This document shows, in pieces, positions 46,254-64,000 of a stretch of DNA of 64,000 bases. Each line of letters starts with the position of its first letter. Position 1 is the stretch's first letter. The position numbers and the translations under genes were made by a program. This DNA is from an uncultured Desulfatibacillum sp. (GTDB lineage: Bacteria; Desulfobacterota; Desulfobacteria; Desulfobacterales; SpSt-501): the NCBI GenBank assembly GCA_964427375.1, contig CAYRUF010000006.1:38892-102891 (forward strand). The letters run 5' to 3'. The notes under the pieces were generated by a model. The model searched no databases. It was given only the letters and a program-made list of their open reading frames with translations, and was not told the origin of the DNA.

Positions 46254-48584
46254 TTACCAGCGCTCATCGGCGCGACGCGCCAGGTCGTCCGGCGGAGCCC
46301 CATGAACCATTCGGGCCGACGTCCGGATCCGCTCGAGGGTTAGCCGCATCAACCCAGCCGCATGCCGCACCGAGCCTTTCAACCCGATCCGCATCAGCCG
46401 GAAAAACGCGCGCAAGGTGCCGATGGTTTTCGTACGGCGCGTCTCGGAAAAGTATTTCCACCGGCCGCTGTCGCCGTAGACGAAACCGATCACCTGCCGC
46501 CGCAGGGATTCGTCCCCGGCCGCGAAGCGGCATCCCAGCGTGGTGGTCCCGTTTTCGTCCTGGGCGCGCAGCACCTGGACGGGCAGCGCATGGCGGCGTC
46601 CGTAGCTGTCAACGGCCTCCAGCTGCAGCGGCGGCGCCGGGAGCGCCGCCCGGCCGTCCACGCTCAGCCCGAGCCCGCTGATCGAAAGATCCCGCAGGGT
46701 CGCGGCCACCGGCGGACCGCCGTCCAACGGCCTCAGCCGGACCGGCTCGCGGGTGGCATAACGGTGCGACCGGCGCAGCTGACGCCGCTCCCAGACGACT
46801 CCCAGACAGCAGACCACCAGAAACAGGTTGAACGTGTTCCAGCACAGGCAGATCACGATCGTATCCAGCAGCGCCGGCTGGTTCATCCACAGGACCGCCC
46901 CCGCGCAGAACGCCAACAGATTGAGCAGAAACATGAGATAAAACGGGGTGGCCAGATGCGTGCGCGCGTCGTGCTCGAGGGAGATGGTCTTGGGGGTGAC
47001 CCGGAACCGCGGCGACCACGGATTCAGGAACACCGCAACGACCGCCGGAATAAGATAGATGCTCTGGATGATTTCGAACAGCTCGGAGAAGAACGGGTGC
47101 CGCAGCCGGCCGTAAAGGAAGTTGGATAGAAAATAGGACCCCAGCAGGTGCGGGACGGCATAGACCAGGACCTGCATCAGCGAGGCATTGTAGACCCGCA
47201 GGCCGAAGATGAGAAACATCAGCGGCGCCAGGAAGAAAATGATGCGCGCGAATCCGAACAGCCAAAACAGACAGGCGTTCAGGTAGCAGATGCGCTGGGG
47301 AAGCGCGAGGCCTTTTTCGCGCAGCGGGTTGCGGAGCAGCAGGATCTGCAGCATGCCCTTGGCCCAGCGGCTGCGCTGGATGATGAAGCTGTCGAAGGAC
47401 TCCGGCGAAAGGCCCATGACCATGGCCTTGTTCAGGTAGACGCTGTTGAGCCCCCGGGCGTGCAGCCGCAGGGCCGTGCCGGCGTCCTCGGTGATCGTGT
47501 CCTCGACCAGCCCGCCGATGTCCATCAGGTGCCGGCGCCGCAGCAGCGCCGCCGATCCGCAGAAAAACGAGGCGTTCCAGAAATCCAGCCCCAGTTGAAT
47601 CCCGCCGTAGAACATCTCATTCTCGCCCGGGCTGATCGTGGCGGTGCCGAGGTTCTTTTCGACCGGCGTGGGGTTGATGAAAAAATGCGGGGTCTGCACG
47701 CAGGCCAGCTGCTCGTCTTCGAGAAAGAAGCCCGCCGTGTGCACCAGGAAATCGCGCGTGGGCACATGGTCGCAATCGAGAATGAGCACCAAATCGCCGT
47801 GCGGCCGCGGCTCGCCCAGGCCCGGGTTGTGGCATGCGGCGACCCGGCGGTCACCGCCGCCGCGGACGGCCGCGCCCAGGGCGGCGTTGATGTTGCCGGC
47901 TTTGGCGTGGATGTTGCGCTCGCGGGTGAGATAGTGCACGCCCAGGGATGCAGCGGCGGCCTGCAGCGCCGCCGAGCGCCGGTGGGCCGCCTCGGCCTTC
48001 ACCAGATCCGGATCATCGAGCTTCTGGGTGGTTCCGCCGTCGTCCAGCACGAACACGTTGAGCTTGTCTTTGGGGTAGTCCAGCTGGGTGCAGGCGGTGA
48101 GCGTGAGGGTCACCAGTTCGACCGGTTCGTTGTAGGTCGGAATCAGCACGTCGACGCTCGGCCAGAGGGACCGGTCCGCCGGCAGCGGCGCGCGCCGCCG
48201 CCGAATGGGCGCCACGTTGACGAAAAGGCCGACCAGATGGGTGAAGATCCCGTAGGTTTCGGCCAGATAGAGCAGCATCAGGAAAACGAAATCCCAGAAG
48301 CCGGTGTAAGAAAGCGTGGCGGTCGTGCGGAACATCCAGTACCGCAGGCTGAGATAGGATCCCAGCACGATGACCACCACGCGGTTGAAATCCCCCGACT
48401 CGCGTTCGATCCGGCTGAAAAGCCATACCGAGACCAGGATGCCGGCGGAGAACAGCATCTGGTTGTCGTCCGTCAGGATGAACGTCGCGGACCAGACCGA
48501 CAGGAGGAAAAGGCCGGCCAGTGCGATCAGCGCCGGCAACGAGCGGCTCCGGTTGGTTTCATAAGCGACGGCCGGGAGGGTCAT
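46254..48584 (-). CDS. BcsA-like processive GT2 glycosyltransferase with C-terminal PilZ domain
   Basis: Start ATG 48584 (the track extension to 48794 overlaps dnaE). VLIPTYNEP, FVLDDGGT, ILDCDHVP, ITEDAGT, QRSRWAKG (QxxRW). PilZ RRSHR...DLSISGLG. Confidence 0.85.
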   Translation of the reverse strand: MTLPAVAYETNRSRSLPALIALAGLFLLSVWSATFILTDDNQMLFSAGILVSVWLFSRIERESGDFNRVVVIVLGSYLSLRYWMFRTTATLSYTGFWDFVFLMLLYLAETYGIFTHLVGLFVNVAPIRRRRAPLPADRSLWPSVDVLIPTYNEPVELVTLTLTACTQLDYPKDKLNVFVLDDGGTTQKLDDPDLVKAEAAHRRSAALQAAAASLGVHYLTRERNIHAKAGNINAALGAAVRGGGDRRVAACHNPGLGEPRPHGDLVLILDCDHVPTRDFLVHTAGFFLEDEQLACVQTPHFFINPTPVEKNLGTATISPGENEMFYGGIQLGLDFWNASFFCGSAALLRRRHLMDIGGLVEDTITEDAGTALRLHARGLNSVYLNKAMVMGLSPESFDSFIIQRSRWAKGMLQILLLRNPLREKGLALPQRICYLNACLFWLFGFARIIFFLAPLMFLIFGLRVYNASLMQVLVYAVPHLLGSYFLSNFLYGRLRHPFFSELFEIIQSIYLIPAVVAVFLNPWSPRFRVTPKTISLEHDARTHLATPFYLMFLLNLLAFCAGAVLWMNQPALLDTIVICLCWNTFNLFLVVCCLGVVWERRQLRRSHRYATREPVRLRPLDGGPPVAATLRDLSISGLGLSVDGRAALPAPPLQLEAVDSYGRRHALPVQVLRAQDENGTTTLGCRFAAGDESLRRQVIGFVYGDSGRWKYFSETRRTKTIGTLRAFFRLMRIGLKGSVRHAAGLMRLTLERIRTSARMVHGAPPDDLARRADERW

Positions 48585-48595
48585 GGCGCTATCGG

Positions 48596-51500
48596 CTACC
48601 TCGCATTCCAATGCGGTTTCGATGACTGCGGCGGGCGTTCCACCGGCGCGCAACGGGTTTCGACCGCGGCGTAGCCCAGCAGCTCCCGCACCTCGCGCCG
48701 CAGCGCCGGGCCGGCCCGGAGTTGAAAGCCTTCCGAAAGCTCGATCAACGCTTCCGCCCGGGCCGCACCGCGCAGGTGCAGGTAGGTCTTGCACGGCCCG
48801 GGGAAGCGCTGCAGCAGATCCCGCAACCGCAGCAGGAGCTCGCGGTCGGTGCGGTCGAGTTCCAGGTTGACATGCACGCTGGCGGTCCAGGTCTCCTCGG
48901 CTTTTTCCAGCGCGATCATGCTGTCGGCGACCAGTTTGACCGATTGTTCGTCCTTCTGGACCTGACCCTGCACCAGGACGGCGTTGTCCTCCTTCAACAG
49001 ATCACCGCAGCCCGCGTACAGGCGCGAGAACACCGTCACCTCCAGGGCGCCGTGCAGGTCTTCGATGGTCACAAACGCCATGAGGTCGCCTTTTTTGGTC
49101 TTGATCGTCTTGGTGCCGCGGACCAGCCCGCCGATGCGCACGGAGGCGCCGTCGGCGGCCTCCTTGACGGACAGCGCGTCGGCGGTGGTGAACTTGCCGA
49201 GCAAATCCTCAAACCGCCGCAGCGGGTGGCCGCTGAGGTAGAACCCCAGCGATTCCTTCTCGAAGGCCAGCTTCTGGCGGTCGTCCCATTCGTCGATGTC
49301 GGGAACGGCCGGAAGGTTCACGGGCTGCGGGCACTCCGTCCCGCCGAAGAGCCCCATTTGGGGATCGCAGCGTTCCTTTTGAGCCCGCTGGCCGTATTCC
49401 AGGGCCACTTCCAGCGCCCCCATCATCTGGGAGCGCCGCAGGCCGGTGGTGTCGAACGCCCCGCACTTGATCAGGCTTTCGATGACCCGCTTGTTGACCT
49501 TCTTGAGATCCACCCGTTCGCAGAAGTCGAAAAACGAGGCAAACGGCCGCTCCCGGCGGGCATCGACAATGGCATCGATCGCAGCCTCGCCCACGTTCTT
49601 CACCGCCACCAGGCCGAAGCGGATCCGGTTGCCGTCCACCGTGAATTCCTTGAAGCTGCGGTTGATGTCCGGCGGCAGCACGGGGATGTCATGGCTGCGG
49701 CATTCGGCGACGAACTTGACGATGTTGTCGATGGATCCCATTTCGCTGGTGAGCAGCGCGGCCAGGAACTCCACCGGAAAGTGCGCTTTCAGGTAAGCGG
49801 TCTGATAGGCGATGAGCGCATAGGCGGCGCTGTGCGATTTGTTGAACCCGTAGCCGCCGAATTTTTCCATCAGATCGAAGAGGGTGGCCGCCTTGTCCGG
49901 GGCCACCCCGTTGGCCGTCGCGCCCTTGATGAAGCGCTCCCGGTGGGCCGCCATGATCTCCACGATCTTCTTGCCCATGGCCTTGCGCAGGTCGTCGGCG
50001 TCCGCCATGCTGTAGCTGGCCAGAACGCTGGCGATCTTCATGACCTGCTCCTGGTAGACGATGACCCCGTAGGTTTCCTCGAGGATCGGCGCCAGCTGCG
50101 GCACCAGATAGCTGACGGCTTTCCGGCCGTGCTTGCGGTCGACGTAGTCGTCGATCATGCCGCTTTCCATGGGGCCGGGACGGTACAATGCCACCAATGC
50201 GACCACGTCCGCGAAGCATTCGGGCTTGAGCCGCACCAGCAAGTCCTTCATGCCCGAGCTTTCCAGCTGGAAGACCCCGGTGGTGTCGCCGGCGGAAAGC
50301 AGCCGGTAGGTGGCCGCGTCGTCGAGCGCGATGTTTTCGAGGTCCGGGGGGGTCTTGCCCTGGCGGCGGATGAGCTCCAGCGCGCTGGCGATGACGGTCA
50401 GGTTGCGCAGCCCCAGGAAATCGAACTTGACCAGTCCGATCTTCTCCACGATCTTCATGTCGAACTGGGTGACGACCTCACCCTTCTTGCCCCGGAACAG
50501 CGGCAGGTACTCCACCAACGGGCGGTCGGAGATCACCACCCCGGCGGCGTGGGTCGAGGCATGGCGCGGCAGACCCTCCAGCACCCGGCAGATCCGAATC
50601 AGATCGCCGTATTCGGGCTTTTTCTCCACCAACTCCCGCAGCCGGGGCTCCCGTTCCAGCGCGTCGTCCAGGCCGATGTTGAGCACGTCGGGCACCAGCT
50701 TGGCGATGGCGTCCACCTCCGGCAGCGGGATGTCGAGCGCGCGGCCGACGTCCCGGATCACCGCCCGCGTCTTGAGCTTTCCGAAGGTGATGATCTGGGC
50801 CACGTAGTCCCCGCCGCCGTAGCGGTCCACGACATACCGGTAAACGTCTTCGCGGCCGTCGATGCAGAAGTCGACGTCGATGTCCGGCATGCTCTTGCGG
50901 GCGGGGTTCAGAAAGCGCTCGAAGATCAGCCCGTGCACGATGGGGTCCAGGTCGGTGATGCCCAGACTGTAGGCGACCAGGCTGCCGGCGGCCGACCCCC
51001 GTCCGGGGCCGACCGGGATGCCGCTTTCCTTGGCGTGGCGGATGAAATCGGAAACGATCAGAAAATAGCTGGGAAAGCCCATCTCCTTGATCATCCGGAT
51101 TTCATCATCCAGTCGCTCCCGGTAGACGGACTCGTCCGCCTCGGGGTTTTTGGCGCGCACCCGGCGCATGATCTTCTCGAACCCCTCGCGCGCATTGCGC
51201 TCGAAGAGCTCATCGACGCTCTGCTGGCCGTGGGTGTCGAACCGCGGGAAATGATAGGTTTTGAAATCGAACTCCAACCGGCAGCGCCGCGCGATCGCCG
51301 CCGTGTTCGCGAGCGCCTCCGGGGTATCCTTGAAATACGCCGCCATCTCGGAGGCCGGCTTGAAATACAGCTGGTCGGTGCGGAACTTAAGCCGCTCCGA
51401 GTCGTGGATGGTCTTGCCGGTTTGAATGCACAGCAGCACGTCGTGGGCGCGGACGTCCTCGCGCGAGAGGTAGTGGCAGTCGTTGCTCGCCACGAGCGGG

Positions 51501-55033: not shown

Positions 55034-56566
55034 TTAACGCCGCCATGCCATCAATCGAGAAAAAATCTTCTTGGCAAAAGGCGTGAGACGCGTGCGATTG
55101 AAAGCATCGCCGACCTGGCGCACGGCTTCGGCCTGCGTCGGATACGGATGAATGGCGGCGGCGATGTTTTTGAGCCCCAGCCCGTTCGTCATCGCCAGGG
55201 TGATCTCGGATATCATGTCCCCGGCGTTTTGGGCCACGATCGTGGCCCCGGCGATCTGATCGCTGCCCTTGCGCACATGCACGCGGACAAAGCCCTTGGT
55301 TCGGCCTTCGAGGATAGCTCGGTCCACCTCGGATAGCTCCCGCGTGAAGGTATCCAGCGCGACCCCCTGCTCCTCGGCCTGTTTCGGATAGAGCCCGACA
55401 TGGGCAATTTCCGGCTCCGTGTAGGTGCACCATGGAATCGTCAATGCGCTGGCCTTGGCGCGGCCGAAAAAAAGCGCGTTTCGGATCACGGTGCGCGCCA
55501 TGACATCGGCGGCATGCGTGAATTGATAGGGCGAGCAGATGTCGCCGGCCGCGTAAATGTCGGGCTGCGTCGTCTGAAGCTGATCATTTACCTGAACGCC
55601 CTTCTTGGAATACGCCACCCCGGCCGCTTCCAGCCCCAATCGCTCCACGTTCGGGGAGCGTCCGACGGCGACCAGGAGCTTGTCCACGACCTCGTCGTAG
55701 TTTTTCGAGTGAGATTCCACCGACAGGCGCACCCGTCCCCCATCCGCCTTGGACAGCTTCAGTTCCTGGCCGCAGCAAAGGAGCCTGACACCGTCTTTGA
55801 GCAGAGACCCCAAGACGATCTCGGAGGCATCAGAGTCCTCGCGCGGCAGGATGCCATGGGTGGCCTCGACCAGGAACACTTCAGCGCCGAAGCGGGCAAA
55901 GCTCTGGGCCATCTCGCAGCCGATGGGCCCGGCGCCGATCACGGCCAGGCGCTTGGGCAGCCCCGTCAAGGAGAAGAGGGTTTCGTTGGTCAGGTATTCC
56001 ACCTCGCCCAGCCCCGGAATGGGCGGGGCCGAGGCCCGGGCGCCGGTGGCGATGACGGCTTTCTTGAAGCGGAGCTTCTCCCCCGCAACCTCAATGGTAT
56101 GGGAATCCACAAACCGTCCGTTGCCGATGAAGACATCGACCCCCAGTCGGCTGAACCGCTTGGCGGAGTCGTTCGGGGCGATGGACGCCCGCAGCCGACG
56201 CATACGCTCCATGACGTGGCCGAAATCGACCTGCACCCCCTCCGGCACTCGAACTCCGAACTCGGCTGCATCCCGCACGGCCGCCGCCGCCCGCGCCGCT
56301 GCGATCAGCGCCTTCGAGGGAACGCAGCCGACGTTGAGACAGTCCCCTCCCATCAGATGGCGTTCGACCAGCGCCACTTTTGCACCTAATCCGGCCGCAC
56401 CGGCTGCACTGACCAGCCCGGCGGTCCCGGCTCCGATCACGACCAGATTGTAGCGCTCAGCGGGCTTCGGGTTGGTCCAATCGAACGGGTGGACCAGGGA
56501 GGCCAAGTTCCGGTTGTGTTCATCCCATGGGCGAACAATCGGGATCCCATTATTATTTTCCGACAT
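55034..56566 (-). CDS. Class I pyridine nucleotide-disulfide oxidoreductase (mercuric reductase / dihydrolipoamide dehydrogenase-like)
   Basis: Start MSENNNG at 56566 after AAGGAG. VVIGAGTAGL, redox disulfide GGDCLNVGCVPSK, C-terminal dimerisation domain. Confidence 0.9.
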   Translation of the reverse strand: MSENNNGIPIVRPWDEHNRNLASLVHPFDWTNPKPAERYNLVVIGAGTAGLVSAAGAAGLGAKVALVERHLMGGDCLNVGCVPSKALIAAARAAAAVRDAAEFGVRVPEGVQVDFGHVMERMRRLRASIAPNDSAKRFSRLGVDVFIGNGRFVDSHTIEVAGEKLRFKKAVIATGARASAPPIPGLGEVEYLTNETLFSLTGLPKRLAVIGAGPIGCEMAQSFARFGAEVFLVEATHGILPREDSDASEIVLGSLLKDGVRLLCCGQELKLSKADGGRVRLSVESHSKNYDEVVDKLLVAVGRSPNVERLGLEAAGVAYSKKGVQVNDQLQTTQPDIYAAGDICSPYQFTHAADVMARTVIRNALFFGRAKASALTIPWCTYTEPEIAHVGLYPKQAEEQGVALDTFTRELSEVDRAILEGRTKGFVRVHVRKGSDQIAGATIVAQNAGDMISEITLAMTNGLGLKNIAAAIHPYPTQAEAVRQVGDAFNRTRLTPFAKKIFSRLMAWRR

Positions 56567-56580
56567 TTCCAGCTCCTTTG

Positions 56581-57306
56581 CTATGAGATTCGGGCGGATA
56601 ATGCTTTTTTGGCCACGCGCGTGACAAACACCGTTACCACCACCGTTGCCAGCAACCCGACACCGTAAAGCACCCATTCGGCCGTGGTACGGCTATGCCC
56701 TCCGGCCCCCAGACTGGCCAGGTCTCCGGCGAGCGATCCTAAATAGACATACATCACGGTGCCGGGCATCATGCCTATCCACGATGCAAAGAAGTAGTGC
56801 CGCAGGCTTACCTTGGTCAATCCGTAGGCGTAGTTGAGCAGATTGAAAGGAAATACTGGGGAAAGTCGGGTCAACAGGACGATCTTCCAGCCTTCCTTCC
56901 CCACAGCCTCGTCGACGGCGTTGAATTTCTGATTGCCGGCTATTCGCTTGGCCACCCAGTTGCGTGCCAAGTAGCGCCCGACGAGAAAGGCGCTGGTGGC
57001 CCCCAGTGTCGCCCCGATCGAAACGGCGATGGAGCCTTGGACCACCCCGAAGACAACCCCGGCCCCTAACGTCAGGATGGATCCCGGCAACAGCAGGACA
57101 CAGGCCATGATGTAGAGCGCCATGAAAATCAACAGACCTGCAGCGCCTAGGCCGGAAATCCAGGCCAGCGCTTGGCGCAGGACTTCTTGGAGATTGAAAT
57201 ATCTCGCTGCAACGAGAATTCCGCCGACAACGGCCGCAGCCATAAGAGCCTTGACCGCCGTTCCGCTGCGCGAGGCGGTTGTTTGTGAATCGGCTGCTGC
57301 ATTCAT
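56581..57306 (-). CDS. TVP38/TMEM64 (DedA-related) membrane protein
   Basis: LLLPGSILTLGAGVVFG...RLSPVFPFNLLNYAYGLT is the family pattern. Confidence 0.85.
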   Translation of the reverse strand: MNAAADSQTTASRSGTAVKALMAAAVVGGILVAARYFNLQEVLRQALAWISGLGAAGLLIFMALYIMACVLLLPGSILTLGAGVVFGVVQGSIAVSIGATLGATSAFLVGRYLARNWVAKRIAGNQKFNAVDEAVGKEGWKIVLLTRLSPVFPFNLLNYAYGLTKVSLRHYFFASWIGMMPGTVMYVYLGSLAGDLASLGAGGHSRTTAEWVLYGVGLLATVVVTVFVTRVAKKALSARIS

Positions 57307-57829: not shown

Positions 57830-59401
57830 TCAACGCCGGATTCGGACGCCGCGCAGAAACTTCTCCGTCAGATCGGTGATCTCGGCGATCTTCAGTCCAT
57901 ACCCGGCCGCGAGCATGAGCGCCGCGAAGGCGCTTCCGACGATCACCGCGATCGCCAGGCTGCCGGCCGGGCCGGAGGCATCCAGCGCCTCGAGCGCCAG
58001 GCGCCGGACCGCCGCCAGCAGCGGCGCCAGGGCCAGGCTCAACAGGGCGGTCTTGAGATAGAAGCGCATCACCTCGCTCTGTCCCGTATTGCGGCTGCGG
58101 CGGTTCCAGAGAATGAAGAGGACCGCGACCTGCAGGATGCCGGAAAAGGAGATCGCGAGCGCCACCCCCTGCACGCCCATCAGCACGATGCCGAGCGGGT
58201 AGAGCGGAAGGCTCGCCAGCACGACCACCGTGCCGAACACGGCCGGGAAGAGCGTGTTGCGGGTGGCGAAGTAGCCGCGCACCACGACGGTGCTGGCCGC
58301 AAAGCCGACCGCTCCGGCCAGGAACCAGACCAGCACGTCGGCCGTGATCCGGGTGGCGGCGGGGTCGAACCGCCCCCGCTCGAACAGAAGACGCACGACC
58401 TCCGGGCTCAACACCATCAACAGCACGGAAACGGGTATCAGCAGCGCCAGGTAGCGCAGGGTCCGGTTCATCAGCCGGTTCAGTTCGTCCAACCGGTTTT
58501 CCTCGGCCAGGCGGGCCATAAAGGGGTACGTGGCCGTGCCCACCGCCTGGCCGAAGATGCCGACCAGGATGAGCATCACCCGCAGGCTGAAATTGAGCAC
58601 GGCGATGCTGCCGCCCGGAAGATAAGAGCCGAAAAACCGGAAAAGGAATTCAGTGGAAAACGTCATGGTCAGGCCGAGCATCAGCGGCAGCGTCAGGCGC
58701 AGGTAGGCGCCCACGTCCGGGTGGCGCCAGTCCCAGGCCGGCCGAAACCGCAGTCCCAGCCGGCGCGCCCCCGCCCACTGCAGCAGCAGGTTTCCGGCAA
58801 ACGATCCGGCCAGCACCCCCCAGGCGAACCCTTCAACCCCCAGCCACGGTCCCAGCAGCAACCCGCCGGCGATGATGCCCAGGTTGTAGATCAGGGGCGC
58901 GAGCGCCGGCAGGAGGAAGTGCTCGCGCGCGAACTGGACGGCCGTCAGCAGGCCGCCGGCAAAGAAAAACATCTGGGCCGGCAGGATGATGCGGGTCATG
59001 CGCACGGCCAGGGCCCGGGTCTCCGGGTCTTCAAGGCCCGGCGCGGCCCAGGTCACCAGTTCGGGGGCGAATGCCATGGCGAGCCCCACGCCCGCCAGCG
59101 CTAGGCTTCCGAAGACGCACAGGAGAATGGAAAATACGCGGCCGGCTTCGGCTACGCCCTGCTGGATCAGCCGGCGGGCATAAAGCGGAATGAACGTCAC
59201 GGATAGGAAACCGGTTGCGACCACGTGGTTCAGGATTTCCGGCAGGATGAAGGCGACTTGATAGGCGTCCACCTCCGGGCCGGCGCCGGCCCGCCAAGCG
59301 ATGGTCATTTCGCGCAGCAGCCCGATCACGCGGCTGAGGAAGACGGAAGCCATCATGACCAGGGAAGCGATGCCGGCTTTTCGGTAGATGGAAGGTTGCA
59401 T
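57830..59401 (-). CDS. murJ: Lipid II flippase MurJ
   Basis: Start MQPSIYRKAG at 59401. SRVIGLLREMTIAWRAGAGPEVDAYQVAFILPE is a typical MurJ N-terminus. Confidence 0.9.
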   Translation of the reverse strand: MQPSIYRKAGIASLVMMASVFLSRVIGLLREMTIAWRAGAGPEVDAYQVAFILPEILNHVVATGFLSVTFIPLYARRLIQQGVAEAGRVFSILLCVFGSLALAGVGLAMAFAPELVTWAAPGLEDPETRALAVRMTRIILPAQMFFFAGGLLTAVQFAREHFLLPALAPLIYNLGIIAGGLLLGPWLGVEGFAWGVLAGSFAGNLLLQWAGARRLGLRFRPAWDWRHPDVGAYLRLTLPLMLGLTMTFSTEFLFRFFGSYLPGGSIAVLNFSLRVMLILVGIFGQAVGTATYPFMARLAEENRLDELNRLMNRTLRYLALLIPVSVLLMVLSPEVVRLLFERGRFDPAATRITADVLVWFLAGAVGFAASTVVVRGYFATRNTLFPAVFGTVVVLASLPLYPLGIVLMGVQGVALAISFSGILQVAVLFILWNRRSRNTGQSEVMRFYLKTALLSLALAPLLAAVRRLALEALDASGPAGSLAIAVIVGSAFAALMLAAGYGLKIAEITDLTEKFLRGVRIRR

Positions 59402-59596: not shown

Positions 59597-61090
59597 ATGG
59601 CCCCCAGCAAAGGGCGATTACCCCAGCGCATAACGGCGGTTCTGGTCTACGGGCGGTTGCCCCTCGTGTTCGGCGGCATGCTGTGCGCCGTAGCCGTGAT
59701 GTGGAATCAGAATCCCACACTCTACATGATCGGGGTCATTCTGCTGTTCATCGCCATGACCTTCGATCTGGTCGACGGCTGGTTTGCCGCGCGGTTTTTC
59801 CCCTACCCCCAGATGGCCCAGCTGGCCGACCGCATCCTCGACAAACTCATTTATTCCATCATCTTCCCGCTGGTCGCCGTCGGCTGCATGTGGCGGCTGC
59901 ACTATGTTCTGCCGGATCCCAAGAAAACCGAGCTGCTCCACGCCGTGCTGGTGTTGTTTCTGGTGATCACCGTGCTGGTGCGCGACAACTTCGCCCATTT
60001 CATGCGCAGCGTCGCCCTGCGCTTCGATCAGGAATTGGAGTACCGCGAGTTCACGCGTCTGCGCACCATCGTGGCCGCGCCGGTCGGCGCCCTGCTCTAC
60101 GCCTATGCGTTCTACATCCCGAACGGTTCGACTTCCCTCGTCTACCGCTGGATCGCCCGACTGGGAGAGACCCCTCTGCGGACGCTGTTTTTCATCGAGA
60201 TCGTCTTCTTCGTCATTAATTTCGGCTCGATCGCCGGATACATCCGCAAATACGGAACCCTGTGCCTGGACGACCTCTGCCTCGGCAACGTGCAGTTGCG
60301 CCGCCGGATCCTGGCGTTTTTTCCAAACGCCCTGACGATCATGAATGCCATGATGGGGCTGCTGGCGGTGTTTTTCGCTTACCAGGACCGCATTCGGGAG
60401 GCCTCTTTGTTTCTGATTGGTGCGGCCCTCTTCGACAAACTGGATGGGGCCGTGGCCCGCCGGCTCGGTTTGACCGAGCCGCTGCCCGGGCAGGAGCAGC
60501 GGCCCCACCGGGTGACCCTCGGGGGCGTGCTGGACGACATCTCGGATGCCGTCAGCTTCTGCATCGCGCCGGCATGGATTTATTACTTTCTCGTTTCCGA
60601 CATTGCCGATCCGTGGCTCCAGGATCTGCCTTACAGCCTGACCGCGGTGCTCTACGCCTTGGCCGGCATCATCCGGTTGATTTATTTCACCCTGGACCGG
60701 AATCCGATCCCCGGGTTTTTCAAGGGCATGCCCAGCCCGGCCGCGGCGCTGCTGGCCGTAGCGCCCATGATTATTCTCAATCAATCCGTCAATGACGGCT
60801 GCGTTTCGGTTCCCTTCTGGGGCACGATCTGCTTCGTCACGATGATCGTTGCCGCCGTGGTGATGAACCTTTATCCGATCCGTTACCTGCATGCCGGCCG
60901 GTTCATGAGCCGTCACCCCTGGTTGGGCCGCGCGGCCCTGCTGCTGCTCGTATCGGTTTTTACACCCTATTACGGATACGTCTTCCTTTTTTTCATGCTG
61001 CTGTACGCCCTGTCTCCGCTCGTCACCTGGCGCATCGCTCCCCAGGACGCCGCCCGCGAGAACCGCCCCAAAGGGGCGCACGCCCGCTAA
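59597..61090 (+). CDS. Tandem (duplicated) CDP-alcohol phosphatidyltransferase fusion protein
   Basis: Two signatures: FDLVDGWFAAR...LADRILDKL (first half) and FDKLDGAVARR...GGVLDDISDAV (second half). About 14 predicted TM segments. Confidence 0.85.
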   Translation: MAPSKGRLPQRITAVLVYGRLPLVFGGMLCAVAVMWNQNPTLYMIGVILLFIAMTFDLVDGWFAARFFPYPQMAQLADRILDKLIYSIIFPLVAVGCMWRLHYVLPDPKKTELLHAVLVLFLVITVLVRDNFAHFMRSVALRFDQELEYREFTRLRTIVAAPVGALLYAYAFYIPNGSTSLVYRWIARLGETPLRTLFFIEIVFFVINFGSIAGYIRKYGTLCLDDLCLGNVQLRRRILAFFPNALTIMNAMMGLLAVFFAYQDRIREASLFLIGAALFDKLDGAVARRLGLTEPLPGQEQRPHRVTLGGVLDDISDAVSFCIAPAWIYYFLVSDIADPWLQDLPYSLTAVLYALAGIIRLIYFTLDRNPIPGFFKGMPSPAAALLAVAPMIILNQSVNDGCVSVPFWGTICFVTMIVAAVVMNLYPIRYLHAGRFMSRHPWLGRAALLLLVSVFTPYYGYVFLFFMLLYALSPLVTWRIAPQDAARENRPKGAHAR

Positions 61091-61143
61091 AACCGGTTCT
61101 TCGGATGCGGACCGGAAATCCCTTTCCAGTGGGTTAAGCCCTC

Positions 61144-61172
61144 TTGCCAGATGGCGGGATTTGCACTATCAA
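61144..61172 (+). promoter_or_regulatory. Weak sigma70-type promoter candidate TTGCCA-17-TATCAA
   Basis: -35 at 61144-61149, -10 at 61167-61172. Confidence 0.25.
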
Positions 61173-61337
61173 TTAAGCCGTTGAACGTATTCGGCGTGCA
61201 GCGAAAATCTGCGGTCCGGTTTGTCCGGTCGAAGACCGGTCGGAAATTCCCGGCATTCGGTGACCTCCAAACAACGGGCAGGACCCTGAAGCCCGTTCCG
61301 ATGATTGAATTCCCGCTCGAACCAGCGGGAGGCAGCC

Positions 61338-64000
61338 ATGACGCATGCAATCAAATCCCTTGGTTTATGCCTGGGCGCATCCACGGTTTCGATGGTCCAG
61401 GTCGAACAGGACCGCGGCGGCGCCACCGCGCCGCGCATCAGCGCCCATTCGGTTCACGTCCATGAAGGGGACCCCAAGCGCACTTTGCTGCGGGCTCTGG
61501 AAGGCATCGACCTGGCATCCTTCGACCGCATCGCCGCCACCGGACGCAAATTCCGCAAATTCGTCAATTTGACGTCGATCTCGGAGCCGGAAGCGGTCGA
61601 ATGCGCCTATCCGTTCCTGAAGCCCGCCGGGATCGACTGCCCCGCTGTCGTGTCCGCCGGCGGGGAGACCTTCATGGTCTATGTCCTGGACCGCCGCGCA
61701 CGCATCGCCAACGTCATCACCGGCAACAAATGCGCCTCCGGCACGGGCGAGTTTTTTCTGCAACAGCTGCGGCGCATGAACGTCGGCCTGGAGGAAGCCG
61801 CCGCGTTCGCCGCCGTGGAACGACCCCATCATGTCTCCGGCCGCTGTTCGGTGTTCTGCAAGTCGGACTGCACCCACGCCACCAACAAGGGCATTCCCAA
61901 GGCCCAGGTTACCGCGGGCCTGTGCCAGATGATGGCCAACAAGATCCTCGAACTGCTCAAGAAGGTCGAGCGTCGCGACATCATGATCACCGGCGGCACC
62001 GCCCAGAATCACATGATGATCGAGTACCTGCGCCGCGAAATCCCGGGGTTGATCGTCCCCCCGGAGGCTCCTTACTTCGAGGCCCTCGGAGCCGCGCTCT
62101 GGGCGCTCAACCATGAAACCGCACCGTTTCCGGGCATCGCCGACCTCTTCGTCGAGGGAGCGGTGGCCTTCAACCGCCTGGCGCCCCTTGCGGATTTCGC
62201 CGCGCAGGTCGAGTTCAAGACGATCGCCCGGGATGCGATCCGCGCCGGAGACGTCTGCATCCTCGGCCTGGACGTCGGCTCCACCACCACCAAGGCCGTG
62301 CTGCTGCGCCGCTCCGACCAGGCCCTGCTGGCCTCGGACTATCTGCGCACCAGCGGCGATCCGGTGGGCGCCTCCCGGCGCTGCTACCGTTCGATCCTGG
62401 AGCAGGTGCGGCGCCAGGTCGACCCGCGGCAGATCCACATCGTCGGTCTCGGGGTGACCGGATCGGGGCGGCAGATCGCCGGGCTGCACGCCCTCACCGA
62501 CGGGGTCATCAACGAAATCATCGCCCACGCCACGGCGGCCGTCCATTTCGATCCCCAGGTCGACACGATTTTTGAAATCGGCGGCCAGGACGCCAAGTAC
62601 ACCTACATCACCAACTCGGTCCCCTCGGACTATGCCATGAACGAGGCCTGCTCCGCCGGGACCGGCTCGTTTTTAGAGGAGTCGGCCTTCGAAACGCTGG
62701 GCGTACGCATGGAAGACATCGCCGACGTCGCCCTCCGGGGCCGGCGGCCGCCCAACTTCAACGACCAGTGCGCCGCCTTCATCGCCTCGGACATCAAGAA
62801 CGCCATTCACGAGGGCATGGCCCACGAGGACATCGTCGCCGGCCTGGTGTATTCGATTAGCATGAACTACTCCAACCGGGTCAAGGGCAACCGCCCGGTC
62901 GGCGAAAAGGTCTTCATGCAGGGCGGCGTGTGCTATAACCGGGCCGTGCCGCTCGCGATGGCGGCGCTGGTCGGCAAACCGATCGTCGTGCCGCCGGAAC
63001 CCGGCCTGATGGGGGCCTTCGGCGTAGCCCTGGAGGTCCGCAAGCGCATCGAAAGCGGGCTCATGACCGAGACGCTCTTCGACCTGGAGGCGCTGGCCGG
63101 CCGGGAGGTGATCTACGGCCGCTCCTTCACCTGCCGGGGCGGCAAGGAAAAGTGCGACCGGCGCTGCGCCATCAACGTCATCGAAGTGGAGGGGCAGAAG
63201 CACCCCTTCGGCGGAGCCTGCAACCGCTACTACAATCTCCGCCACCACATGGACTACGACATCGAGAAGCTCGACCTGGTCCGCCGGCGCCAGAAGATGA
63301 TCTTCGAAATCTACGGCGTACCGCCCGCCGCCGGCATGAGCGCGGGGGGCCGCGGCCGCGTCGGCCTCAACCGCAGCTTCCTGGTCAACACCTACTACCC
63401 GCTCTACTCCCATTTCTTCAGCCAGCTGGGCTTCGATCTGGTGGTGCCGGACCTGCCCACCCAGGAGGGCATCGACCAGCGCGGCGCGGCGTTCTGCTAT
63501 CCCGTGGAGCTGGCGCACGGCTTCTTCGATACGCTGCTCAAGGCCGATCCGCCCCTGGATTTCATCTTTCTGCCGCACTTCAAGGCAGTTCCCAATCTGA
63601 AGGACGAAAGCAGCGCCCAGTCGCTGGTCTGCCCCCTGGTCCAGGGGGAGACCTACTACCTGCAGACCTCTTTCCGTCCGGCGCTCGACCGCCTGCGGCA
63701 GCGCGGCGCCCGCCTGCTGGCGCCGCTGCTGGACCTGTCGCAGGGAGTCCACGCCGCCGAGGCGCCTCTGCTGGAAGCCGCCGAACAGATGGGCGTGAAC
63801 CGCAAGGCCGCCCAGGCCGCCTTCGCCGTCGCCCGGCAGCGGCAGCTCGACTGCTTCGCCGCCATGAAGACCGCCGGCCGGCAGGCCCTGGCCGAGCTGG
63901 AGGCCGACCCGGAGCGCTTCGGCGTCGTGATCTTCGCGCGGCCGTACAACGGCTTCGCCGAAGAAGCCCACATGGGCATCCCCCACAAGTTCGCTTCGCG
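61338..64000 (+). CDS. Giant BadF/BadG/BcrA/BcrD(HgdC)-type double ATPase fused to a 2-hydroxyacyl-CoA-dehydratase-like domain (5' 887 codons; continues past the right edge)
   Basis: GGGAGG RBS + ATG 61338, open to the window end, hence absent from the track. Two acetate/sugar-kinase-fold ATPase modules (LGLCLGASTVS...GNKCASGTGEFF...CSVFCKSD and LGLDVGSTTTKAV...NEACSAGTGSFLE...NDQCAAFIASD), followed by an HgdAB/DUF2229-like region. Confidence 0.85.
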   Translation, partial: MTHAIKSLGLCLGASTVSMVQVEQDRGGATAPRISAHSVHVHEGDPKRTLLRALEGIDLASFDRIAATGRKFRKFVNLTSISEPEAVECAYPFLKPAGIDCPAVVSAGGETFMVYVLDRRARIANVITGNKCASGTGEFFLQQLRRMNVGLEEAAAFAAVERPHHVSGRCSVFCKSDCTHATNKGIPKAQVTAGLCQMMANKILELLKKVERRDIMITGGTAQNHMMIEYLRREIPGLIVPPEAPYFEALGAALWALNHETAPFPGIADLFVEGAVAFNRLAPLADFAAQVEFKTIARDAIRAGDVCILGLDVGSTTTKAVLLRRSDQALLASDYLRTSGDPVGASRRCYRSILEQVRRQVDPRQIHIVGLGVTGSGRQIAGLHALTDGVINEIIAHATAAVHFDPQVDTIFEIGGQDAKYTYITNSVPSDYAMNEACSAGTGSFLEESAFETLGVRMEDIADVALRGRRPPNFNDQCAAFIASDIKNAIHEGMAHEDIVAGLVYSISMNYSNRVKGNRPVGEKVFMQGGVCYNRAVPLAMAALVGKPIVVPPEPGLMGAFGVALEVRKRIESGLMTETLFDLEALAGREVIYGRSFTCRGGKEKCDRRCAINVIEVEGQKHPFGGACNRYYNLRHHMDYDIEKLDLVRRRQKMIFEIYGVPPAAGMSAGGRGRVGLNRSFLVNTYYPLYSHFFSQLGFDLVVPDLPTQEGIDQRGAAFCYPVELAHGFFDTLLKADPPLDFIFLPHFKAVPNLKDESSAQSLVCPLVQGETYYLQTSFRPALDRLRQRGARLLAPLLDLSQGVHAAEAPLLEAAEQMGVNRKAAQAAFAVARQRQLDCFAAMKTAGRQALAELEADPERFGVVIFARPYNGFAEEAHMGIPHKFAS

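Follow-up and report, generated by a model that had tools for sequence, protein, structure and literature searches.

Ger, a modified, single-chain PlsA, has been validated for Thermotoga maritima (Tmari_0479) and Desulfatibacillum alkenivorans (SHJ90043/WP_073476268.1) (Sahonero-Canavesi et al. 2022; Hopmans et al. 2024); it consists of two activation domains, a DUF2229 'reduction' domain and small HGD-D-like pieces (Sahonero-Canavesi et al.). It is so far the only enzyme validated for the bacterial non-isoprenoid alkyl glycerol ethers of the kind found in sulfate reducers, lipids that are widely used as sediment biomarkers and bear on the 'lipid divide' between archaea and bacteria. Here we analysed a 64,000-nucleotide (nt) stretch from an uncultured Desulfatibacillum sp. 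(GCA_964427375.1, contig CAYRUF010000006.1, positions 38,892 to 102,891), referred to as the window, which ends in two genes on the same strand: one encodes a tandem CDP-alcohol phosphatidyltransferase of 497 amino acids (aa), CDPx2, and the other, of whose 1453 codons the window covers the first 887, a large ATPase-containing protein, GerL. On balance we favour, with moderate confidence, two separate membrane-lipid genes lying side by side, a PlsA/Ger-family GerL and a pseudo-heterodimeric CDPx2.

The D. alkenivorans Ger (1458 aa, 159 kDa) is active and makes saturated alkyl ethers; its paralogue Ger2 (153 kDa) is inactive. Published data indicate that the substrates of Ger are finished phosphatidylethanolamine (PE) and phosphatidylglycerol (PG) rather than CDP-activated precursors, and that Ger needs no partner in E. 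coli; diether formation, the inactivity of Ger2 and ether-lipid turnover are open questions (PMC11150832). A 'BBD' core of two BcrAD_BadFG domains and DUF2229 has been reported to be conserved in all alkyl-ether producers (PMC13159169). The literature criterion for a family member is similarity to T. maritima Ger at e <= 1e-50 with >= 30% coverage. A single-gene PlsA of similar length makes plasmalogens in Enterococcus, Lactococcus and Bifidobacterium, and members with the PlsA/Ger layout have been validated in five organisms.

Domain architecture and gene context of GerL

GerL begins 247 nt past the stop codon of CDPx2 and stays open to the end of the window. The complete open reading frame (ORF) was obtained from a metagenome contig of the Joint Genome Institute (JGI; L001). 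This contig is identical to the window across the 4404 bases that they have in common and differs from it at 1 position in the 10 kb upstream; the ORF encodes 1453 aa with a mass of 159.7 kDa (P0405, identical on public contigs). Pfam finds BcrAD_BadFG (PF01869) in two stretches (E 3e-61) and, after these activases, DUF2229 (PF09989; E 7e-42 on the full-length protein, residues 674-897). Module 1 aligns with the activators HgdC (1HUX, E 1.9e-15) and HadI (4EHT, E 6.1e-18), and module 2 with the same two at E 2.5e-28 and E 2.7e-30, respectively. The cluster-ligand cysteines are kept as C132/C170 in module 1 and C438/C478 in module 2, matching the NDKC.../SSTC... motifs of HgdC. Pfam and the alignments thus agree with the original prediction, which had placed an ORF of at least 887 codons, with two BcrAD/HgdC-type modules and paired cysteines, 247 nt downstream of the tandem gene.

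These four cysteines are invariant in 18 homologues, and so are 26 of the 29 cysteines of GerL as a whole (homologues compared down to ~70% identity). The three exceptions are C89 and C1216, which are variable, and C1078, for which a single homologue has another residue. Further conserved cysteine groups are found in module 1 (C170-x3-C174-x3-C178) and ahead of DUF2229 (C599-x6-C606-x3-C610 and C628), the motifs C170-x3-C174-x3-C178 and C599-x6-C606-x3-C610 being part of the invariant set, and at C1078-x2-C1081, which suggests additional Fe-S sites that HgdC does not have. The C-terminal ~550 residues give one weak HGD-D (PF06050) match of ~50 residues (E 0.009, 16 bits against a cutoff of 28.4). 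A profile of the catalytic part found no match among PDB sequences, with homology to HgdA/HgdB or BcrB/BcrC not detectable, and the PDB matches of GerL are confined to residues ~7-576, the ATPase modules. An AlphaFold2 prediction of this part, made on a 91%-identical homologue (residues 576-1454), is a poor model (predicted local distance difference test, pLDDT, 58), and Foldseek found nothing significant for it in the PDB.

Orthologues of GerL are 71-94% identical across Desulfobacterales and ~74-75% identical in Desulfobulbus alkaliphilus and Syntrophales. On L001, GerL is followed past the window end by genes for a SagB-type nitroreductase, an Atg22-like major facilitator superfamily (MFS) protein, a glycerophosphodiester phosphodiesterase (GDPD, on the opposite strand), a CbiR-like phosphodiesterase of the xylose-isomerase fold and a geranylgeranyl-reductase-family protein. 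Among informative Desulfobacterales loci, the MFS gene lies downstream of the GerL-type gene in 28/29, the nitroreductase gene in 20/29, GDPD in 21/26 and the CbiR-like gene in 13/19. The nitroreductase (L001:16122-16724), a 200-aa flavoprotein (TIGR03605, E 6e-35) encoded 19 nt past the GerL stop, is a candidate accessory redox partner of GerL that might, for example, saturate a vinyl-ether intermediate. The MFS protein (L001:16865-18202; L086:14524-15849; PF11700, E 1.7e-62) is the most constant neighbour, adjoins the Ger-like gene in Desulfobulbus alkaliphilus as well, and could flip or import lysolipids or glycerophosphodiesters. Only the closest relatives (also L006 and L077) have the geranylgeranyl-reductase-family gene (L001:19824-20981; TIGR02032, 181 bits, above cutoff) at the end of the cluster.

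In Syntrophales, the Ger-like gene is flanked on one side (L087:903-7671) by a FabH/FabA/KR/KAS/ACPS cluster with ApeI/ApeP-like and PlsC-type acyltransferase genes and on the other (L087:12737-15249) by a cyclopropane-fatty-acid-synthase-like methyltransferase paired with a FAD_binding_4 oxidoreductase; this pair is presumably similar to the two genes that together form mid-chain methyl-branched fatty acids. No description of the conserved neighbours of GerL (nitroreductase, MFS, GDPD, CbiR-like) was found in the searchable Ger literature, and the nitroreductase, MFS and GDPD genes offer testable candidates for accessory steps.

By architecture, size, taxon and lipid gene context in three orders, GerL fits the PlsA/Ger family, and its single chain with two activases and DUF2229 matches the PlsA/PlsR-type affinity that had been proposed from the window alone. 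That it is instead an acyl-CoA dehydratase, an aryl-CoA reductase or a double-cubane-type reductase with a fused activase, acting on a soluble metabolite, seems to us very improbable. Its source annotations do read 'acyl-CoA dehydratase activase' or 'CoA-substrate-specific enzyme activase', and its best PDB and NCBIfam matches are dehydratase or reductase activators, NCBIfam having no curated PlsA/Ger model that could contradict them. Those matches, however, span only the ATPase modules and leave the HgdAB/BcrBC catalytic subunits undetected, whereas the fused layout of ~1450 aa is that of the validated PlsA/Ger proteins. Across Desulfobacterales, Desulfobulbales and Syntrophales, the neighbours are lipid or membrane genes, and none of them is a CoA-ligase, CoA-transferase or beta-oxidation gene; this argues for a membrane-lipid role and against a soluble acyl-CoA dehydratase. 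Taken together, architecture and context make a membrane-lipid role, which the original prediction had preferred, much more likely than acyl-CoA dehydration. The Desulfobacterota orthologue group, filed in databases as 'acyl-CoA dehydratase activase', should on these sequence grounds be read as a PlsA/Ger-type ether-lipid reductase.

The product of GerL is most likely a saturated alkyl ether of the Ger type and not a vinyl ether or plasmalogen, because D. alkenivorans Ger is, of the validated enzymes, the one that comes closest in taxon, size and architecture. We have therefore abandoned the label 'plasmalogen-type' under which the locus was first described.

The tandem CDP-alcohol phosphatidyltransferase CDPx2

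The two halves of CDPx2 are homologous to each other in profile-profile comparison (hhalign probability 90-94%, E 1.6e-7), and the gene call on the identical public contig agrees with its ORF. An AlphaFold2 model built from 24 close homologues (mean pLDDT 64, N half 50-60), which we used for helix count and fold matching only, has about 6 + 8 transmembrane helices; the low to moderate confidence of this model and of that of the GerL catalytic part is due to shallow alignments. Each half was scored separately against the curated models for pgsA (TIGR00560, cutoff 109.1 bits) and pssA (TIGR00473, cutoff 107 bits). The most canonical fusion, P0389, reaches 143.2 bits as PgsA in its N half and 115.2 bits as PssA in its C half; the corresponding pairs are 114.3 and 104.3 for P0311, 78.5 and 68.5 for P0249, 37.4 and 60.0 for P0243, and 22.5 and 70.2 for the window protein, which is thus under the curated cutoff in both halves (the C half at 70-77 bits). 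A phmmer alignment runs in one stretch over residues 39-476 of CDPx2 against P0389 and over residues 40-454 against P0311. A sequence search of the PDB gave no match for the N half; the C half matches the phosphatidylserine synthase of M. jannaschii (MjPSS; 7POW/7B1K, E 2.5e-6), which is also the top Foldseek match of the moderate-confidence model (7b1k_B, TM 0.69).

A scan of 1.84 billion cluster representatives returned about ten full-length tandem representatives, and the single-domain matches align to the C half only. Among the single-domain relatives of the C half, 8/9 are above the curated PssA cutoff; the one relative of the N half is PgsA-like. Canonical PgsA-PssA fusions of ~445 aa are numerous in uncultured lineages such as Candidatus Margulisiibacteriota, and JGI labels them with both activities. 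The branch to which CDPx2 belongs is 67-92% identical in 80 species genomes, a conservation that points to purifying selection, and a relative is present in 273 genomes. We therefore place CDPx2, by its sequence, in a strongly diverged, Desulfobacterales-wide branch of the PgsA-PssA fusion family; a common origin and an independent fusion both fit. Tandem proteins of this kind are indeed uncommon, as had been remarked, but together they make up a family that can be recognised as such and whose canonical members JGI labels with both activities. Our literature search found no papers on PgsA-PssA fusions or tandem CDP-alcohol phosphatidyltransferases.

The motif of the C half is complete (D280-x2-D283-G284-x2-A287-R288-x20-G309-x3-D313-x3-D317), with all eight residues invariant down to 22% identity and a 12-residue insertion in the loop between AR and G (x20 against the canonical x8). 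In the N half (D57-x2-D60-G61-x2-A64-A65(R66)-x8-A74-x3-D78-x3-D82), the four Asp stand at canonical spacing and are invariant in 24 close homologues, and the Gly of DG and the Ala are present; the canonical Arg is replaced by Ala65, with Arg66 one position late, and the canonical Gly by Ala74. Asp60 is His in two sister clades. Of the two complete signatures originally described, that of the C half is therefore full and that of the N half is so only in part; a loss of catalytic Asp from either half, named at the outset as evidence against the prediction, was not observed, since alignment places four Asp in each.

Residue roles in MjPSS have been defined, and mutation of motif residues is reported to lead to loss of activity (PMC8633023). 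By comparison with that enzyme, the C half keeps the metal ligands (D280, D283, D313, D317) and the equivalents of Arg49 (R288), Ser65 (S316), Arg101 (R360) and Phe105 (F364); the serine-contacting Ser63 has become Asp314, and Arg104 has become Tyr363. Three of the four serine-contacting residues (Asp62, Ser63, Asp66 and Phe105 in MjPSS numbering) are thus kept, with Ser63 changed, and the two substitutions imply that the acceptor may not be serine. Enzymes of the CDP-alcohol phosphatidyltransferase family form obligate dimers, several of which have an anion/acceptor site lined by residues from each protomer (PMC8633023). The simplest reading is that CDPx2 would be a covalent heterodimer, in which an active PssA-derived half is joined to a drifting PgsA-derived partner.

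We think it quite unlikely that CDPx2 is a housekeeping bifunctional PgsA and PssA that makes phosphatidylglycerol phosphate and phosphatidylserine from CDP-diacylglycerol. Such an enzyme would be in keeping with the canonical fusions, which score at or above the PgsA/PssA cutoffs (143/115 bits for P0389, 114/104 for P0311) and carry both labels, with the invariance of all eight Asp, and with the high conservation of the protein in ~80 species genomes. It is harder to reconcile with the low scores of both CDPx2 halves, with the loss of the motif Arg and Gly from the N half and the Ser63 to Asp and Arg104 to Tyr changes in the acceptor/anion site of the C half, or with D. alkenivorans, a member of the same order that is reported to have standalone pgsA and pssA. 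In one 730-aa relative, P0241, the extra canonical PgsA domain ahead of the tandem would also be redundant if the tandem were bifunctional.

P0241 (58% identical) carries this third, PgsA-like CDP-alcohol phosphatidyltransferase domain either as a triple fusion or through a merged gene call with an adjacent pgsA, and in both cases some connection with the PG branch is hinted at. The gene after the tandem gene of one distant relative encodes a fusion of IspH(LytB) and a UbiA prenyltransferase (573 aa; L066:11692-13410, minus strand).

Synteny and promoter-like element of the gene pair

Synteny was counted in 80 loci from named genomes, binned by the identity of the tandem protein to that of the window (Table 1). 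In the 66-75% band, the Ger-like gene lies beyond 1 kb in 22/39 loci, and every insert examined there between the two genes is an efflux operon on the opposite strand (TetR-OEP or TetR-OEP-MFP-AcrB). Below 66% identity, the tandem gene sits among unrelated housekeeping genes, for which reason these neighbours were rejected as a guide to its function. In Desulfobulbus and Syntrophales, no tandem gene adjoins the Ger-like orthologue.

Table 1. Loci with a Ger-like gene or divergent murJ near the tandem gene, by identity of the tandem protein
Tandem identity	Ger-like within 1 kb	Ger-like within 10 kb	murJ divergent within 1 kb
>= 75%	9/9	9/9	10/10
66-75%	17/39	22/22	36/38
< 66%	1/20	2/13	2/22

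The spacer between CDPx2 and GerL is variable except for a conserved block, CTTGCCAGAyG-N8-TGCAsTAT, which contains a promoter-like element (-35 TTGCCA, 17-nt spacer, -10 TATCAA) 196 nt upstream of the GerL ATG. The element has one match in the window against 0.01 expected, and its relaxed form, CTTGC[CA]A-N17-TA[TA], was counted in the 450 nt ahead of the Ger-like gene: 28/49 loci carry it, where 0.003 would be expected per 450 nt, and in 11 of these an efflux operon lies between the tandem and Ger-like genes. A consensus promoter scan found nothing, since it accepts only -10 hexamers that have T in sixth place. A terminator-like site was sought in the spacer and none was found. A riboswitch or leader RNA in the spacer was considered and rejected (no Rfam match, fold z-score -0.9).

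Since GerL has its own conserved promoter-like element and efflux operons are inserted ahead of it, comparison of the loci indicates that the GerL block is its own transcription unit. The adjacency of CDPx2 and GerL is lineage-level synteny, which is shared with murJ, and it should not be over-read as evidence for an operon. When the conservation of the pair in relatives is checked, it holds within 10 kb at >= ~66% identity and fails beyond that.

The original prediction joined the two genes in one co-regulated ether-lipid module, in which CDPx2 would attach head groups to ether-linked CDP-alkylacyl- or CDP-dialkyl-glycerol, or would feed or use the substrate of the reductase. The genes do share a strand across a 247-nt gap in which no terminator-like site is seen, and every informative locus at >= 66% identity (31/31) has a Ger-like gene no more than 10 kb downstream; moreover, the C half scores equally against archaetidylserine synthases, which use ether-lipid donors, and bacterial PssA, and its acceptor pocket is altered relative to PssA. 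Nevertheless, efflux operons break the adjacency in many loci, distant relatives lose it, Desulfobulbus and Syntrophales have the Ger-like gene with no tandem neighbour, the reductase has a promoter-like element of its own, and Ger acts on finished PE and PG and needs no partner in E. coli (PMC11150832). We therefore regard functional coupling as unlikely and do not retain the module as proposed.

Several points weigh against our preferred reading of two separate membrane-lipid genes. The promoter is a conserved motif and not a mapped start site, and with no terminator-like site after the tandem gene, read-through co-transcription is possible in the window genome. The 31/31 informative loci that keep the two genes within 10 kb could reflect function rather than inertia. 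As to GerL, its catalytic region gave no significant match to Pfam (E 0.009), to PDB sequences by profile or to known folds (the model being poor, pLDDT 58); plasmalogen makers and alkyl-ether makers are not reliably told apart by architecture; and its assignment to Ger rather than Ger2 is inferred only from size, architecture and taxon. Finally, the N half of CDPx2, with all four Asp and as conserved as the C half, may be fully active.

Proposed functions, other features and comparison with known systems

The chemistry, the substrates and the choice of active half that we infer for two separate membrane-lipid genes are as follows. GerL would be transcribed from its own promoter, and its two fused HgdC-like ATPase modules would share a [4Fe-4S] cluster on C132/C170/C438/C478. 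ATP hydrolysis would push a low-potential electron into the Cys-rich DUF2229 and C-terminal catalytic part, which may then, in the absence of oxygen, reduce to an ether the acyl ester at sn-1 (and perhaps that at sn-2) of a phospholipid that is already assembled. CDPx2 would derive from a PgsA-PssA fusion and form a pseudo-heterodimer whose two CDP-alcohol phosphatidyltransferase domains are covalently joined. Its C half is the probable active transferase, using a CDP-activated lipid donor with an altered acceptor pocket; its N half, probably degenerate or re-specialised, would replace the second protomer of the obligate dimer. Being widespread and uncharacterised, CDPx2 offers a natural system in which to ask what a second protomer contributes.

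A more far-reaching proposal, which we rate as improbable, is that the locus encodes a fuller bacterial ether-phospholipid pathway, with the SagB-type protein as a helper for vinyl-ether saturation or sn-2 ethers, with the MFS, GDPD and CbiR-like proteins handling ether lysolipids, and with CDPx2 specialised for ether-linked CDP-lipids. If this were true, the SagB helper would explain why Ger2 is inactive alone in E. coli, CDPx2 would be the bacterial counterpart of the archaeal archaetidylserine and archaetidylglycerol synthases, and the MFS protein, GDPD and CbiR-like phosphodiesterase would deal with ether lysolipids that cannot be hydrolysed.

The features of the locus are collected in Table 2. 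A search of the rest of the window for other CDP-alcohol phosphatidyltransferase genes or lipid genes found none. As originally noted, murJ is divergent; it lies upstream of the tandem gene, and its mechanical ORF reaches 59518 where the public gene call gives 523 aa.

Table 2. Coordinates of features in the window
Feature	Position	Strand	Evidence
murJ (lipid II flippase)	57830..59401	-	Pfam MurJ 7.2e-75; TIGR01695 293.8 bits, cutoff 235.6
CDPx2, tandem CDP-alcohol phosphatidyltransferase, 497 aa	59597..61090	+	Pfam CDP-OH_P_transf, two stretches, E 3.1e-17
CDPx2 N half, residues 1-228, PgsA-derived, strongly diverged	59597..60280	+	TIGR00560 22.5 bits
CDPx2 N-half signature D57..D82	59765..59842	+	homologue alignments; strict regular expression misses signature
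CDPx2 C half, residues 229-497, PssA-derived	60281..61087	+	TIGR00473 70-77 bits
CDPx2 C-half signature D280..D317 (DKLDGAVARR...GGVLDDISD)	60434..60547	+	
Sigma-70-like promoter element CTTGCCAGATGGCGGGATTTGCACTATCAA	61143..61172	+	comparative alignment, motif count
GerL (putative Ger/PlsA-family single-chain ester reductase), first 887/1453 codons	61338..64000	+	ORF open at window end
GerL ATPase (activase) module 1	61338..62117	+	alignment to 1HUX, 4EHT
GerL ATPase (activase) module 2	62256..63035	+	Pfam BcrAD_BadFG, residues 309-565
GerL DUF2229, residues 674-887, on to 897 beyond window	63357..64000	+	Pfam PF09989 E 4.9e-38

On the murJ strand, 55034-57306 (-) encodes a DedA/VTT-domain membrane protein with a weak UptA-like match and a PRK06370-type flavin adenine dinucleotide (FAD) disulfide oxidoreductase, whose mechanical ORFs overlap by ~97 nt; the 523-nt gap between this pair and murJ holds no called gene and no Rfam match. 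The G+C content of the window is 60-68%. Long antisense ORFs at 59618-61081 (-), 61365-62546 (-) and 62673-63986 (-), of 487, 393 and 437 aa, overlap CDPx2 and GerL; they are absent from public gene calls and resemble the shadow ORFs that high-G+C DNA typically contains. An unrelated gene next to dnaE (46257-48794, -) encodes a BcsA-like glycosyltransferase-2 with a C-terminal PilZ domain, of the type of polysaccharide synthase controlled by cyclic di-GMP.

Near-identical proteins come in every case from uncultured Desulfobacterales metagenome-assembled genomes (MAGs) or metagenome contigs, where CDPx2 is annotated as 'phosphatidylserine synthase' and GerL as 'acyl-CoA dehydratase activase'. 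MAGs labelled 'Desulfatibacillum', whose GC content is 60-73%, are no close relatives of the cultured species. Two MAGs labelled Hyphomicrobiales (L009, JBLMXM010000347.1) and Gammaproteobacteria (L050, JAIVWA010000076.1) carry a Desulfobacterales-type locus at 84% and 68% identity, respectively; in both cases the public record is probably misbinned or mislabelled.

Compared with the canonical fusions P0389 and P0311, CDPx2 has the same order of a PgsA-like and then a PssA-like half, aligns over its full length at 22-25% identity and shares invariant residues in both halves; it differs in being ~50 aa longer, and those fusions score as PgsA and PssA and keep DGxxAR, LDS and RLxRF. With MjPSS (7B1K/7POW) and subclass-II PssA, the C half has in common the fold (TM 0.69), the metal-binding Asp quartet and the Arg49/Arg101/Phe105 equivalents, but it stays below the PssA cutoff (70 against 107 bits), has Asp314 in place of Ser63, and belongs to a fused chain rather than being the subunit of a homodimer.

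Each GerL module aligns end to end with HgdC/HadI and the ATPase subunits of benzoyl-CoA reductase (1HUX, 4EHT, 9GAI) and keeps the cysteines of the bridging cluster; GerL differs from these systems in fusing both modules in one chain with a catalytic part, and HgdA/HgdB and BcrB/BcrC are not seen in the remainder. PlsA/PlsR (C. perfringens CPE1194/1195, and the single-gene PlsA of Enterococcus faecalis, Lactococcus cremoris and Bifidobacterium longum) are of the BCR/HAD type and likewise [4Fe-4S]-dependent, with two activation domains and reduction/dehydration domains, and their fused single-gene form is common. They act on the sn-1 ester of diacyl phospholipids and stop at the vinyl ether; the sulfate reducers of Desulfobacterales are known for saturated alkyl glycerol ethers, and the GerL sequence by itself does not tell the two outcomes apart. 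GerL is set beside Ger by description rather than by alignment, and D. alkenivorans also has Ger2, the inactive paralogue. Like Ger, GerL is a single chain of ~1450 aa with two BcrAD_BadFG domains, DUF2229 and, possibly, a small HGD-D-like segment, the weak match after DUF2229 resembling the small 'H' matches reported in PMC13159169. At 1453 aa and 159.7 kDa it is also close in size to the D. alkenivorans enzyme (1458 aa, 159 kDa), with which it shares the order and a strictly anaerobic context.

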